A stretch of 64,000 nt of DNA from Alphaproteobacteria bacterium (GCA_033345275.1 JAWPOF010000012.1:32443-96442), one strand, 5' to 3'; positions 4,001 through 9,751 are shown, counted from the first letter of the stretch. Notes: a model not told the origin generated them from the letters alone. Program-made: numbers and translations.

Positions 4001-4717
4001 ATGAGTGGACACAGTAAATGGCACAATATTCAGCATAAAAAGGGCGCAGCCGACGCGGCACGCAGTGGGCTGTTCACAAAACTGGCGCGTGAAATTACCA
4101 TGGCGGCAAAGTTGGGGGATAAAAACCCAGATAACAATCCACGCCTGCGTTTGGCAATTTTAACCGCGCGCAAGAATTCTATGCCGAACGACAATATCAA
4201 ACGCGCAATTGACAAGGCGTCGGGTTCAAATACTGAAAATTACGAAGCGGTGCGCTATGAAGGTTATGGCCCAGGTGCGGTGCCAGTTATTGTAGAGGCA
4301 TTAACCGATAACCCACGTCGGACTGTGCCGGAAATTCGCAATATCTTTGGCAAAAATGGCGGAAATATGGGCGAAGAAGGTTCTGTTGTGTTTATGTTCA
4401 CACGCGCGGGCCAGATTATGTACCCCGCATCAATCGGTAAAACCGAAGATGAAATGATGGAAATTATTATGGAGGCCAATGCCGATAATTTGGAGGCGTC
4501 TGAAGAAGGATTTATCATCACAACCAAACCAGAAGATTTTATCACAGTACAAAAATATCTGGCCGATAAATTGGGTGAACCAGAACAGGCTGAATTGACT
4601 TGGTTGCCAAATATGCCAATGGATTTGGACGATGAAGCCTATGCCAAGTTGGAAAAGTTGGTGGATGCGCTGGATGCCAATGATGATGTGCAGAAGGTTT
4701 TCACCGCTGCAGAATAA
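4001..4717 (+). CDS. yebC: YebC/PmpR family protein
   Basis: MSGHSKWHNIQHKKG, NPRLR, YEGYGPG, DDVQKVF. Confidence 0.96.
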   Translation: MSGHSKWHNIQHKKGAADAARSGLFTKLAREITMAAKLGDKNPDNNPRLRLAILTARKNSMPNDNIKRAIDKASGSNTENYEAVRYEGYGPGAVPVIVEALTDNPRRTVPEIRNIFGKNGGNMGEEGSVVFMFTRAGQIMYPASIGKTEDEMMEIIMEANADNLEASEEGFIITTKPEDFITVQKYLADKLGEPEQAELTWLPNMPMDLDDEAYAKLEKLVDALDANDDVQKVFTAAE

Positions 4718-4817
4718 ACAAAAATAATTCATCTAAAAACAAAAACGACAACGCAGTGTACAGAAGCTACATAAGTTGTCGGTTTTGTTTTTATCTAAAA
4801 CATTTTTGTTTATTCTG
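4710..4817. repeat. Long imperfect palindromic element, copy 3 (core inverted, different stem)
   Basis: Perfect 16-bp outer stem CAGAATAAACAAAAAT/ATTTTTGTTTATTCTG, ATCT/ATCT loop, 18-bp inner stem, core GCAGTGTACAGAAGCTACATAA. Confidence 0.8.
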
Positions 4818-4844
4818 TTTCAAGTGCAAGGGGGATATTACTGA

Positions 4845-4873
4845 TTGACTTTTTGTGGAGATGGTAATAATAT
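4845..4873 (+). promoter_or_regulatory. Sigma70-like promoter for the thrS leader
   Basis: TTGACT-N17-TAATAT; leader ATG lies 7 nt after the -10. Confidence 0.6.
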
Positions 4874-4880
4874 TGATGTT

Positions 4881-4937
4881 ATGAAAATGTTTGGTTTGTT
4901 CTTTATGACAACTACTACAACCCCGTTGGGGGTATAA
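4881..4937 (+). CDS. Thr-rich leader peptide MKMFGLFFMTTTTTPLGV upstream of thrS
   Basis: Five consecutive Thr codons ACA ACT ACT ACA ACC; 78 nt upstream of the thrS ATG. Confidence 0.85.
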   Translation: MKMFGLFFMTTTTTPLGV

Positions 4938-4943
4938 ATTCTA

Positions 4944-4972
4944 TTGCGGTGCGTGGCACAAATTCTTATAAT
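4944..4972 (+). promoter_or_regulatory. Second sigma70-like promoter between the leader and thrS
   Basis: TTGCGG-N17-TATAAT. Confidence 0.55.
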
Positions 4973-5015
4973 CAAACAGTTAATTAATTCAAGAAAATAT
5001 AAAAAGGTTTTTGTT

Positions 5016-6749
5016 ATGGCATATGATATCGAATTAATGCGTCATTCGTTGGCACACGTTATGGCGGCGGCGGTTAAAAAATTACACCCAGAGGTTAAGT
5101 TTGCGGGCGGTCCCGCGATTGAAAATGGGTTCTATTATGACTTTGATACAGAATATCGTTTTTCCGAAGATGATTTTGAAAAAATCGAAAAGGAAATGCG
5201 CGATTTAATCAAATCTAATGGCCGTTTTGAACAGAGAAATGTTAGTCTGGACGAGGCCAAGGAAATCTTTGCAGACCAACCATATAAAATGGAATGGTTG
5301 AACGAATATGATGCGGCGGGCGAAGCGTTGTCGATTTATACTTTCCGTGATTTTGTTGATTTGTGTCGTGGGCCACACGTGGAAAGTTCCAAGGATTTGC
5401 CACGTGATTCTTTCAAAATTCGCAGCGTTGCCGGTGCGTATTGGAAGGGGGATTCGAAAAACAAAATGTTGCAGCGTATCTATGTGGACGCATTTGCAAC
5501 ACGCGAAGAATTAGAAGCGTTCCTTAAAATGCAGGAAGAGGCCGCCGCGCGTGATAATCGTAAATTAGGTAAAGATATGGATTTGTTCCATTTTGAACCG
5601 GAATATGCGCCGGGTTCAGTTTTCTGGCATGACAAAGGGTACAAGATGTATCGCCGTCTGATCGAATATGTACGTGCGCGCCAGGAACGGGCAGGGTACC
5701 AGGAAATTTCAACGCCGGCCGTTATGGACAGATGTCTGTGGGAACGCAGCGGGCACTGGGCAAAGTATGGTGAACATAACTATTCGGGTAAAACTCAGGA
5801 TGGCAAGGTATTCTGTATCAAACCAATGTCGTGCCCGGGTGGTATGTTGGTGTTTGGACATGGATTGCGTTCGTACAAAGATTTGCCGTTGTATATGGCA
5901 GAATTTGGCAAGGTTCATCGTTACGAGGCGGCAGGTGGTTTGTCGGGGCTGATGCGTGTGCGTGAATTTACCCAGGACGATGCGCATATTTTCTGTACAG
6001 AAGAACAGTTAGAAGAAGAAGTTGTCAAAATCTTGCGCTTTATCAAAGATATTTATGGGAAATTTGGTTTTGATAAAATTACCATGAAATTGGCAACGCG
6101 TAAAGAATCTGAATTCCGTATTGGGTCGGACGAAATCTGGGACAAGGCTGAAGGTGCACTAAAGCGCGCGTTGGATGCGAATGGGATTGAATACGAAATT
6201 GCCGAAGGGGATGCAGCATTCTATGGGCCAAAAATTGATAACTATCTGCGCGATTCTATGGGGCGCGTATGGCAGTGCGGTACGGTTCAATTAGATATGA
6301 ATCTGCCGGAACGGTTTGATTTGAGTTATGTTGGTGAAGATGGTGAAAAGCATCGTCCGATTATGTTGCATCGTGCGATGTTGGGATCTATTGAACGATT
6401 TATGGGTGTGTTGCTGGAATCGACGGGTGGTAATTTGCCATTGTGGTTGTCGCCAGAGCCGGTGGTTGTTGCGCCGATTTCACAAAAACATGCCGATTAC
6501 GCAAATGAAGTTGTCGAAATGTTGCATAATGCCGGTGTGAACGCGCGTGCAGATTTGAGAGATGAAAAAGTTAACTATAAAATCCGTGAATTGTCGTTGG
6601 CAAAAACGCCAATCATCGCGGTAGTCGGTGAAAAGGAAATGGCAGACAGAAATGTCACACTGCGCCGTTTGGGGGTCGAAAAACAGGAATCAATGCCACT
6701 GGATGCATTTGTTGAAATGATGAAAGATAGTGTCAAGATGCCATTGTAA
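5016..6749 (+). CDS. thrS: Threonyl-tRNA synthetase (lacks N-terminal TGS domain)
   Basis: RHSLAHVMA, DLCRGPH, KPMSCPG, MRVREFTQDDAH, AFYGPKID, HRAMLGSIERF. Confidence 0.97.
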   Translation: MAYDIELMRHSLAHVMAAAVKKLHPEVKFAGGPAIENGFYYDFDTEYRFSEDDFEKIEKEMRDLIKSNGRFEQRNVSLDEAKEIFADQPYKMEWLNEYDAAGEALSIYTFRDFVDLCRGPHVESSKDLPRDSFKIRSVAGAYWKGDSKNKMLQRIYVDAFATREELEAFLKMQEEAAARDNRKLGKDMDLFHFEPEYAPGSVFWHDKGYKMYRRLIEYVRARQERAGYQEISTPAVMDRCLWERSGHWAKYGEHNYSGKTQDGKVFCIKPMSCPGGMLVFGHGLRSYKDLPLYMAEFGKVHRYEAAGGLSGLMRVREFTQDDAHIFCTEEQLEEEVVKILRFIKDIYGKFGFDKITMKLATRKESEFRIGSDEIWDKAEGALKRALDANGIEYEIAEGDAAFYGPKIDNYLRDSMGRVWQCGTVQLDMNLPERFDLSYVGEDGEKHRPIMLHRAMLGSIERFMGVLLESTGGNLPLWLSPEPVVVAPISQKHADYANEVVEMLHNAGVNARADLRDEKVNYKIRELSLAKTPIIAVVGEKEMADRNVTLRRLGVEKQESMPLDAFVEMMKDSVKMPL

Positions 6750-8117: not shown

Positions 8118-8191
8118 TGGTGCCCTAAGCAAGAATCGGACTTGCGACTCGTCCTTACCAAGGACGTGTTTTACCACTAGACTATTAGGGC
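8118..8191 (-). tRNA. tRNA-Thr(GGT)
   Basis: Cloverleaf GCCCTAA/TTAGGGC, anticodon arm CGTCC-TTGGTAA-GGACG, encoded CCA; T-loop TCCGATT. Confidence 0.93.
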
Positions 8192-8292: not shown

Positions 8293-9570
8293 TTAGTGTT
8301 TGCCACCAATTTTGGTGCGACCGCCCATTAATGGTTGCAGGCATTTTGGAATGTTGACTGAACCATCTGGGTTTTGGTGGTTTTCAATCACAGGTACAAG
8401 TGCACGTGGCAGGGCGATTCCTGTGTTGTTTAATGTTGCGCAGAATTTTAATGTTCCGTCGGATGCACGGAAACGTGTGTTTGTGCGACGGGCCTGGAAT
8501 TGACCAATCGAAGAACAAGAGCCCAATTCGCGGTATGTATTTTCGCTGGGGAACCAGGCTTCTACGTCGTGCATTTTGACCTTGTTAAAGCCCATGTCGC
8601 CGGTGCAGGCTGCAATAACGCGATATGGTAATTCCAAATCTTCCATAATTTCGCACAGGTTGCTTAATAAATGTTTGTGCATTTCATCAGACTGTTCAGG
8701 GGTGCAATAAATGTATTGTTCGACCTTGTTAAATTGATGTATACGCACGATTCCGCGGGTGTCGCGACCGGCAGCGCCCGCTTCTTTGCGGAAACATGGT
8801 GAATAGCCAGCGTATTTAATTGGCAGATCTGTTTCATTTAATACTTCGTCTGCGTGCAGGGAATTTAATACAATTTCAGCTGTTCCCGCCAGACAACGGT
8901 CGGTGTCGGTTAACATAAATACATCGTTGTTCATGATGGACAAGTCTGAACCCATAAAGTGGCCCGCATTAAATATGGTTTGGGGCTTTGTAATCGATGG
9001 GCAATTTACGAATGTAAATCCCTTGGCGATTAATTTTTGCAGAACGTATGTTTGAATGGCCAGTTCCAGTTCCGCCGCTTCGCCAAACAAGGCATAGGTG
9101 CGACTGCCACAAATGCTGGCGATTTTTTCTGGTTTCCACCAACCATTCATTTCCAATAATTCCCATTGTGGGCGTGGGGTAAAGTCAAATTCGCGTGGTG
9201 TGCCAACCCGTTTGATTTCCACGTTTTCTGTATCGTCGCGACCAATTGGCGCATCGGGTGACGGAATTTGTGGAACGCAGTGTAATAAATCATTTAACTG
9301 GGATTCTTTGTTCGCCAATTCCGCCATGTCGGCCGCGATTTCGTCTGCGATTGCTTTGCTGCGTGCAATTAATGGTGCGCGGTCCGTTGCGGTTGGAATT
9401 TCGCGTGTGATTTTATTTTTTTCGGCGGTTTTTGCCTGGGTTATTGTTTTTAATTCTCGGACGCGCGTGTCCAGTGCCAAAATTTTATCGGTATGGTCGG
9501 GTATCCCCCTGGTCGCGCAGGCGTTTTTTATAATGTCTGGGTTTTCACGAATAAATTTTATATCCAACAT
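8293..9570 (-). CDS. serS: Seryl-tRNA synthetase
   Basis: MLDIKFIREN, GTAE, CFRKEAG..GRDTRG..R.HQFNKVE, TLNNT. Confidence 0.97.
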   Translation of the reverse strand: MLDIKFIRENPDIIKNACATRGIPDHTDKILALDTRVRELKTITQAKTAEKNKITREIPTATDRAPLIARSKAIADEIAADMAELANKESQLNDLLHCVPQIPSPDAPIGRDDTENVEIKRVGTPREFDFTPRPQWELLEMNGWWKPEKIASICGSRTYALFGEAAELELAIQTYVLQKLIAKGFTFVNCPSITKPQTIFNAGHFMGSDLSIMNNDVFMLTDTDRCLAGTAEIVLNSLHADEVLNETDLPIKYAGYSPCFRKEAGAAGRDTRGIVRIHQFNKVEQYIYCTPEQSDEMHKHLLSNLCEIMEDLELPYRVIAACTGDMGFNKVKMHDVEAWFPSENTYRELGSCSSIGQFQARRTNTRFRASDGTLKFCATLNNTGIALPRALVPVIENHQNPDGSVNIPKCLQPLMGGRTKIGGKH

Positions 9571-9630
9571 GTTTTTGTTCCTTAGGTTTTTATTTGGGAT
9601 ATATGTTATTATGGTGCGAAATGTTTCGCA

Positions 9631-9659: not shown

Positions 9660-9713
9660 CTATTCCCCCAACGGGGATGAGATGGATGAGAAAAATACAA
9701 AACCTGTTTTCAT
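9660..9713 (-). CDS. Ser-rich leader peptide MKTGFVFFSSISSPLGE upstream of serS
   Basis: TCA TCC ATC TCA TCC then CCG TTG GGG; 89 nt upstream of the serS ATG. Confidence 0.85.
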   Translation of the reverse strand: MKTGFVFFSSISSPLGE

Positions 9714-9722
9714 ACTGATTTA

Positions 9723-9751
9723 ATTATGAATTTTTTTAAGATGTAATGCAA
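9723..9751 (-). promoter_or_regulatory. Sigma70-like promoter for the serS leader
   Basis: TTGCAT-N17-CATAAT; leader ATG lies 9 nt downstream. Confidence 0.55.

Follow-up and report, generated by a model that had tools for sequence, protein, structure and literature searches.

How does a single hairpin, without an antiterminator, turn the waiting of a ribosome into a decision about gene expression, and which sign does that decision have? The question is raised by two short leader frames, one ahead of thrS and one ahead of serS, in a stretch of 64,000 nt from an alphaproteobacterial genome (the window). T-boxes govern synthetase genes in Firmicutes, and E. coli relies on a few special devices for the same purpose. 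To our knowledge, synthetase control in Alphaproteobacteria with reduced genomes is largely unknown. Here we describe the hairpin that closes both frames, and further copies of it in the same genome and in relatives. We conclude that it is a real, selected RNA element, the mechanism of which is partly resolved.

Results

Two leader frames close with the same hairpin

The features of both leaders are collected in Table 1. The two 14-mers that form the hairpin (HP1) lie exactly where a first-pass annotation of this DNA had placed them. HP1 occupies codons 14-18 of the Thr leader frame and codons 13-17 of the Ser leader frame, and it is the only helix common to the minimum-energy folds of the two leaders. 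The last Thr sensor codon, which we number codon 0, provides the first three bases of the stem of HP1(Thr), and Pro-Leu-Gly is encoded as CCG TTG GGG in both leaders. The thrS start lies 78 nt beyond the end of the Thr leader frame on the plus strand, and serS begins 89 nt past the end of the Ser leader frame on the minus strand. The 577-residue thrS product is missing the N-terminal TGS domain.

Table 1. Positions of leader, hairpin, promoter-like and gene features in the window
Feature	Position	Strand	Sequence or product	Remarks
P1 of Thr leader	4845..4873	+	TTGACT-17 nt-TAATAT	promoter-like; -10 ends 7 nt ahead of ATG; no Shine-Dalgarno
Thr leader frame	4881..4937	+	MKMFGLFFMTTTTTPLGV	18 codons, stop TAA
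Thr sensor codons	4908..4922	+	ACA ACT ACT ACA ACC	n=5
HP1(Thr)	4920..4933	+	ACCCC/GTTG/GGGGT	5 bp; 24-nt segment folds at about -9.1 kcal/mol
Stop codon and tail behind HP1(Thr)	4934..4943	+	ATAAATTCTA	moderately U-rich
P2 of thrS	4944..4972	+	TTGCGG-17 nt-TATAAT	promoter-like; putative promoter
HP2(Thr)	4949..4959	+	GTGC/GTG/GCAC	overlaps -35 and spacer of P2
thrS	5016..6749	+	threonyl-tRNA synthetase, 577 aa	ThrRS by Pfam
serS	8293..9570	-	seryl-tRNA synthetase, 425 aa	SerRS by Pfam
HP2(Ser)	9615..9630	-	TGCGAA/ACAT/TTCGCA	
Ser leader frame	9713-9660	-	MKTGFVFFSSISSPLGE	17 codons, stop TAG
HP1(Ser)	9664..9677	-	TCCCC/GTTG/GGGGA, tail ATAGTTTATC	flagged terminator-like by simple scan
Ser sensor codons	9675..9689	-	TCA TCC (ATC) TCA TCC	last TCC is codon 0
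P1 of Ser leader	9723..9751	-	TTGCAT-17 nt-CATAAT	promoter-like; -10 ends 9 nt ahead of ATG; no Shine-Dalgarno

The Thr leader and thrS share one frame (window 4881-5018), with no stop between the leader TAA and the thrS ATG. A leader-ThrRS fusion through frameshifting or stop read-through was considered and rejected, as the open stretch is lost in relatives; the in-frame arrangement is probably due to chance because relatives do not keep it. On the strand of serS, a tRNA-Thr(GGT) gene (8121-8191, minus) follows about 100 nt further downstream. This tRNA reads ACC, which is also the codon that forms the Thr hairpin.

Context sets the hairpin apart, and the genome holds further copies

As a bare word the motif is unremarkable: CCCCGTTGGGG with up to one mismatch occurs twice in the window against 0.87 expected, a count that 18 of 100 shuffles reached and that is not significant. 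The exact 11-mer is found only at the two leader sites in the whole 0.96-Mb genome. The looser pattern CCCC-N3-6-GGGG has 252 sites genome-wide, only three of which (ahead of thrS, serS and a second thrS) close a short frame with a cognate codon run. It is context and conservation that lift the hairpin above chance.

The third of these leaders emerged from a scan for short frames with amino-acid runs (G000:C7:257158-257214, MKLLFFIFETYTTTPFGV followed by a stop). Its hairpin is ACCCC-TTTT-GGGGT, and the gene behind it encodes a second ThrRS that is confirmed by Pfam and is 50% identical to the first. Neither this copy nor the alaS copy described below was in the first-pass annotation. The second ThrRS gene and its own Thr leader together span G000:C7:257158-259065 (L170). 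When the two enzymes are aligned, similarity looks far higher over the first ~185 residues (the editing part) than over the catalytic part, which suggests a mosaic or recombined paralog.

A truncated ThrRS paralog, which begins at the catalytic core, is present in two related genomes (L079 and L080; G007:C2 and G012:C37). Its leaderless leader of 34 codons builds an 8-bp, terminator-like stem (ACCACCGC/GCGGTGAT) from the last Thr codons, with the stop within the loop and a good U-rich tail behind (ATATTTCTTATTTCT). By eye, no site resembling P2 was seen in this paralog. Separately, a repeated element at about nine places in G000 (for example C1:68894-68965, C4:16098-16169 and C9:458-529) carries the same ~23-codon frame, MTCPTKPWRSGIPPLTTCTYTNH, and a frame with the end VCPLGK-stop is present in six copies.

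Selection acts on the stem rather than on the peptide

The Pro-Leu-Gly tripeptide had been proposed to be a by-product of RNA structure, a proposal that would fail if homologues kept the tripeptide with synonymous changes that break the stem. In a synonymous-site test on 65 distinct leaders the stem sites were fixed instead. The Gly codon was GGG in 59/59 leaders, compared with a genome-wide GGG usage of 21%, and codon 0 was ACC in 54/54 Thr leaders and TCC in 11/11 Ser leaders, while ACC made up 15 of the 231 other sensor codons. Outside the stem the codons varied. The third base of the Pro codon drifted (CCT 31, CCG 16, CCC 9, CCA 3), the middle codon took 11 forms, the middle residue was L, A, T, V, W, F, K, C or M, and the codon behind Gly was GTG in 25 cases, GTC in 11 and GTA in 9. 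In four lineages (L033, L034, L064 and L079/L080) the stop falls within the loop and the untranslated 3' arm (GGGG) is still kept. Compensated stems that do not encode Pro-Leu-Gly also occur, namely TCCGC/GCGGA (L066 and L087, frame end SSSAMRG-stop), CCCAC/GTGGG (L064) and the stem of the truncated paralog; leader ends in other lineages are AMRG, MGG, VSH-stop or TTTTA-stop.

Since the codons at stem sites are fixed, the 3' arm is kept where it is untranslated and stems are compensated, the hairpin RNA is the selected unit and P-x-G-(V/E) its translation, and the by-product proposal thus holds. That Pro-Leu-Gly is instead a nascent-peptide arrest motif, with the hairpin secondary, is scarcely credible: P-x-G is indeed found in most Enterousia leaders, but the middle residue has at least nine identities, the stem itself forces Pro and Gly, and several lineages keep the hairpin without the peptide (stop in loop, AMRG, MGG).

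The closing pair changes with the codon

The closing pair had been described as switching from A-T to T-A together with the codon. Among 55 distinct sequences it was A-U in 35, U-A in 6, U-G in 4 and unpaired or out of register in 10, and four Ser leaders (L043, L057, L058 and L063) have a T:T mismatch. The switch is thus real between Thr and Ser leaders, but it is not universal. The inner four pairs are invariant in the main family (C-G in 51-52 of 55), and the other sequences pair in their own register with other loop lengths. The covariation score exceeded those of all 500 shuffles and all slid registers, for sequences that are kin. The change from A-U to U-A is essentially one event that divides Thr from Ser leaders, and the covariation as a whole comes down to a few lineage-level events among related sequences, with about three inner-pair compensations contributed by distant lineages.

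In the alaS version the closing pair is G-C, both in this genome and in 14 of 15 relatives, so there are three states: A-U for Thr, U-A for Ser and G-C for Ala. The rule is that the last cognate codon pairs, through its first base, with the base behind GGGG. That base also sets the next residue, which is Val in Thr leaders, Glu in Ser leaders and Gln or His in Ala cassettes.

The cassette is found in Enterousia-type genomes, with sensor codons anchored at the stem

Relatives with the cassette (the cognate codons together with the hairpin) belong to Candidatus Enterousia or are uncultured gut Alphaproteobacteria. Ahead of thrS it was present in 25 of 27 readable loci from 41 related genomes and in all 46 complete Enterousia-type loci in public records (three more were cut off, unreadable and outside the counts), and in none of 31 public-record loci from other groups (Pelagibacteraceae and others, 47-53% identity). 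For serS the count was 14 of 30 loci (7 by script, 7 by eye), the remaining 16 having serS directly behind another gene or behind a plain promoter. Sister families carry variants of the cassette. In nearly all of 93 relatives' leader candidates, HP1 was the minimum-free-energy structure of the 24-nt segment from the last sensor codon. A candidate "classical" three-hairpin Thr attenuator in a sister genus (g3; L036, L069 and L070) was rejected: its frame holds just 2-3 Thr codons and is possibly the end of a longer one, and thrS is served by its own promoter >200 nt further on.

The sensor codons are anchored at the stem. Thr occupies positions 0 to -7 in 53, 53, 49, 40, 34, 36, 15 and 3 of 53 leaders, and Ser positions 0, -1 and -4 are cognate in 11/11 leaders.

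An alaS version closes a full-length gene

In this genome the alaS cassette lies outside the window (C7(-)183736). It reads GCCCC-GGC-GGGGC, stands 92 nt ahead of alaS and closes an upstream frame that ends ANENAAPAGQE-stop. Fifteen of 30 same-genus loci have a cassette of this kind (L181-L191, L193, L197, L199 and L200), GCCCC-N3/4-GGGGC, at 82-100 nt ahead of alaS and with the frame end (A)AAP-x-GQ. All 15 close the same upstream frame of ~270 codons (255-282 open before the hairpin). Often only positions 0 and -1 are cognate. A promoter-like site follows this cassette too, and its tails, judged by eye, look A-rich and are without a U-rich stretch.

About 20-60 nt ahead of alaS in L181-L200, an inverted repeat (GGGG/GGGC ... 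CCCC/GCCC) brackets the -10-like TACAAT of the promoter-like site. A palindrome of this sort is where AlaRS of E. coli represses alaS, and the repeat is reminiscent of it. Two further patterns were tried and rejected. A pattern for Ala that called for three Ala codons and a loop of 4 nt matched in only 4 of 151 genomes, near its reversed-pattern control, and one of these matches (G067) led to the shorter, real alaS cassette. A Pro version (CCN CCN CCC CC...) matched in 9 of 151 genomes, mostly through one repeat in G044, and none of the matches examined lay ahead of proS. Thr, Ser and Ala are amino acids whose NCC codons can start a CCCC arm.

Promoter-like sites, tails and a second hairpin flank HP1

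Neither the promoter-like sites that flank the leaders nor the U-rich tail behind the hairpin had been noted in the first-pass annotation. P1 of the Ser leader was not reported by a stricter promoter scan. Relatives offered 73 distinct contexts for comparison. In 71 of them the P1 -10 ends 6-10 nt ahead of the leader ATG, and an SD-like 4-mer precedes the ATG in none. Because the -10 lies so close and there is no Shine-Dalgarno, transcripts from P1 should be leaderless or nearly so. The leader ATG lies 12-16 codons ahead of codon 0, at 13 codons in 39/73. Of 73 leaders, 50 have a stop that begins 2 nt behind the last paired base and 4 have it within the loop; in 72 it is in the loop or at most 6 nt from that base.

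The Thr and Ser tails have a mean of 7.6 T in the 16 nt behind the stem. In a simple terminator scan HP1(Ser) passed and HP1(Thr), with 3 T in the first 8 nt, failed. HP1 itself is the only intrinsic-terminator candidate between leader and gene.

Most thrS and serS leaders lie just upstream of a second promoter-like site. Behind Thr leaders it takes the form TTGYRN-17 nt-TATAAT about 8-10 nt past the stop, and in ~43 of 56 relatives' Thr leaders the distance from TTGYRN to the -10-like hexamer is 17 nt, despite a variable-length hairpin in the spacer. This site, P2, may be the gene's own promoter, with the A-rich spacer as its 5' UTR. The hairpin that overlaps it, HP2, has stems that differ among relatives with the pairing kept (GCGG/CCGC, GCGA/TCGC, GCAC/GTGC, GGCG/CGCC), and the 45 nt behind the stop fold at -4 kcal/mol or lower in 54 of 69 leaders.

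HP1 was the only helix that RNAalifold found in 57 Thr leaders. Single folds of the Thr and Ser leaders were no better than shuffles (z 0.39 and -0.47), and an antiterminator appeared neither in these nor in the consensus fold of the 57. This agrees with the first-pass view that the element differs from a textbook attenuator. Nor did the single folds or the consensus fold pair the thrS or serS Shine-Dalgarno with the sensor tract or the CCCC arm; by eye, single genomes showed 4-6 bp that were not conserved. A scan of the window at Rfam gathering thresholds returned two tRNAs only and no Thr_leader (RF00506), T-box (RF00230) or other leader family, and E-value scans of both leaders gave only chance snoRNA matches (E 4-6).

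RNA-library contigs were taken from three metatranscriptome runs of one study and one run of unknown type, material in which DNA is not excluded. Relatives' contigs run from 4882 or 4895 over HP1 and P2 into thrS, and bins 4651-4867 had no cover in any run; being contigs, they give no start, end or level. They are weakly suggestive that read-through molecules may exist.

Discussion

A proposed ribosome-gated hairpin

The genes with the cassette (two thrS, serS and alaS) are cognate to its codons, and we propose that HP1 serves as the read-out element in a cis-regulator of class II synthetase genes that depends on the ribosome. The cassette consists of cognate codons up to a final NCC, then CC, a loop of 3/4 nt, GG, and GG N'. 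The last cognate codon (ACC, TCC or GCC) forms the base of the stem, N' pairs with the first base of that codon, and the frame stops in the loop or 1-6 codons past the stem.

The first-pass annotation had supposed that folding depends on the position of a waiting ribosome, and in outline this is supported: since the last cognate codon makes up the 5' arm, folding has to depend on the position of the ribosome. The ribosome footprint extends ~12 nt 3' of the A-site codon, so with the A site at 0 or -1 the 5' arm is necessarily inside the ribosome. The arm can be free only as long as no A site lies between about codon -3 and codon +5; therefore the hairpin reports ribosome occupancy of the cognate codons.

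What the report is used for is less certain. The reading we prefer, with a confidence that falls a little short of even, is a single-hairpin, ribosome-gated attenuator in which the waiting ribosome keeps the hairpin open and more synthetase is made when charged tRNA is short. In thrS and serS the frame would be the first element of a leaderless transcript from a strong P1, with HP1 and its U-rich tail 10-35 nt ahead of P2. A ribosome that awaits cognate aminoacyl-tRNA while any of codons -3 to 0 is in its A site would hold the 5' arm in the mRNA channel and block the hairpin. With fast decoding it would reach the stop and depart, and the hairpin would fold. Folded HP1 would weakly terminate transcripts from P1, as an intrinsic terminator, or make the polymerase pause on them, and P1 would add to synthetase mRNA only with the hairpin held open. 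The sequences show the anatomy and its conservation, selection on the RNA, the lack of an antiterminator and the covariation in three states; we infer the two promoters, a leaderless start, termination or pausing at HP1 and, most of all, the direction of the response.

Three observations favour this homeostatic reading: the codons at 0 and -1, positions at which a waiting ribosome has to cover the arm, stay cognate; the opening base of codon 0 does not drift but shifts in concert with its partner; and two thrS paralogs have the device, one of them apparently without a promoter of its own. Of the terminator features, the U-rich tails and the pass of HP1(Ser) in the scan count for it, the failure of HP1(Thr) against it. 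Geometry speaks against it. In expressome structures the ribosome P site comes no nearer than ~27-34 nt to the RNA 3' end. Once codon 0 or -1 is in the A site, the polymerase must have reached or passed the position of canonical release, 7-9 nt behind the stem. A ribosome that reaches the stop covers the hairpin too, and termination upon fast decoding is not obvious. According to the accessible part of Li et al. 2016 (PMC4824070), terminators a few bp behind a stop are repressed by the ribosome, and those that lie in a frame's initial 100 bp function in any case. The alaS copy closes a long gene and its tail, by eye, is A-rich, which likewise argues that more than a canonical terminator is involved.

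A broader reading, possible though doubtful, is that this is a portable "codon-in-stem" sensor, a regulator class of its own that works at the end of any translated frame, be it a full gene or a leaderless mini-frame. NCC would be paired with its own anticodon-like GGN' in a 5-bp hairpin, no antiterminator would be needed, and a ribosome waiting on the hairpin for tRNA(GGN) would set the output of the neighbouring class II synthetase gene. The steps in between could be a gauge of ribosome-polymerase distance, an interplay of P2 and HP2, or a Rho or RNase route.

Alternatives to the preferred reading

The sign of the response could be opposite to that of the homeostatic reading. In a coupling attenuator like that of pyrBI, a lagging ribosome would let the hairpin stop or pause the polymerase, and fast decoding would give read-through; slow decoding would then mean termination, and P1-derived synthetase mRNA would rise with charged tRNA. 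This is unlikely in our judgement, though it deserves serious weight. The frame runs through the hairpin to a stop in the loop or at most 6 nt on, mostly at +2, as in pyrBI. The tight distance from start to codon 0 fits a timer that is set when ribosome and polymerase depart jointly from the 5' end, and P2 would supply the basal level that positive feedback needs. For a terminator at a stop codon, simple geometry favours this coupling, as does what is accessible of Li et al. 2016 (PMC4824070). It would, however, place an essential synthetase under positive feedback. The best-kept sensor positions, 0 and -1, which in alaS are often the only cognate ones, are those at which the ribosome covers the 5' arm, so a delay there could not let the hairpin form. 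The alaS frame of ~270 codons means that a fixed distance from start to hairpin is not essential. Known synthetase controls (T-box, pheST attenuator) act opposite to positive feedback.

The read-out may also come later, and be post-transcriptional or Rho-dependent, with the hairpin and a parked ribosome acting after the polymerase has moved on; we regard this as distinctly unlikely. A Rho entry site could be masked or exposed (tna-type), RNase scanning that depends on the 5' end could be blocked, or a processing site could be set in the linker between HP1 and HP2. That linker is single-stranded and A/U-rich, the spacer to the gene is unstructured (60% A, 5% G), the genome encodes Rho, and the alaS cassette, by eye, has no U-rich tail. 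The conservation of cognate codons at 0 and -1 implies, moreover, that a state with the polymerase at least 21 nt downstream matters. Leader and spacer together are nevertheless short (~135 nt) and C-poor (12%), which makes a poor Rho entry site, the only C-run would be sequestered by HP1, and no conserved pairing to the Shine-Dalgarno region was found.

Very improbable is an ordinary transcript-end hairpin of a tiny gene (for alaS, of the upstream gene) with cognate codons that merely coincide with a CC-rich stem. HP1 does stand at a frame end ahead of another promoter-like site, and the alaS hairpin closes a normal gene, but Thr runs precede two thrS genes, Ser runs serS and Ala codons alaS, with closing pairs to match; 3-7 cognate codons precede a stem that needs the final NCC alone; and nothing similar stands ahead of other genes in this genome.

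Relation to known systems

The element works like a leader-peptide attenuator, minus the antiterminator that is one defining feature and with HP1 as the sole candidate for another, the terminator. With the classical attenuators (trpL, hisL, thrL and pheM-pheST) it shares a short translated frame rich in cognate codons upstream of the gene. As in the trpL 1:2 hairpin, sensor codons lie in the 5' arm and the stop in or just past the hairpin, and as in pheST a synthetase is among the regulated genes. Unlike in those systems there is one hairpin, with no 2:3 antiterminator and no separate 3:4 terminator; the start is probably leaderless, leader and gene are separated by a second promoter-like site, thrS, serS and alaS are the targets, and none of the Rfam leader families matches. 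Feedback on synthetase genes (thrS and serS included) by the state of the cognate tRNA or enzyme is also the task of T-box riboswitches and of the E. coli thrS operator, but these are tRNA- or protein-binding RNAs without a translated sensor, and none was detected here.

In the pyrBI and pyrE attenuators of E. coli, the ribosome directly blocks a terminator inside the leader frame. They too have no antiterminator, and a frame that runs through the hairpin leaves its folding to the ribosome. pyrBI senses polymerase speed (UTP) at U-rich pause sites, whereas here decoding speed would be sensed because cognate codons are fused to the stem, and the sign may differ. Both attenuators are mentioned in the accessible parts of PMC5021804 and PMC4824070. 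Mycobacterial leaderless polycysteine short ORFs sense charged tRNA for downstream genes, as far as the accessible part of Canestrari et al. (10.1101/834739) goes. They share with our leaders a leaderless short frame with the cognate run at its 3' end, and act, according to the same part of that source, translationally through a long duplex of the Cys tract with the Shine-Dalgarno. Such pairing is absent here, and 4 nt separate the sensor codon from its partner. The his-type hairpin-dependent pause signal, with its 5-bp stem, resembles HP1 in stem size and in its position upstream of a U-rich stretch, a likeness we take as a lead only. Literature full-text searches returned no title or abstract that describes such a thrS, serS or alaS leader, and the Enterousia papers are, by what could be seen of them, genome surveys.

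Implications

The element exists in three amino-acid versions, with the closing base pair changing with the codon. A structure of ~14 nt fused to the codons that are read makes it the smallest amino-acid-specific ribosome sensor known to us, and the cassette may serve as a compact synthetic sensor of tRNA charging. In these bacteria the fusion of a hairpin to a cognate codon probably lets a waiting ribosome report on the decoding of Thr, Ser or Ala.
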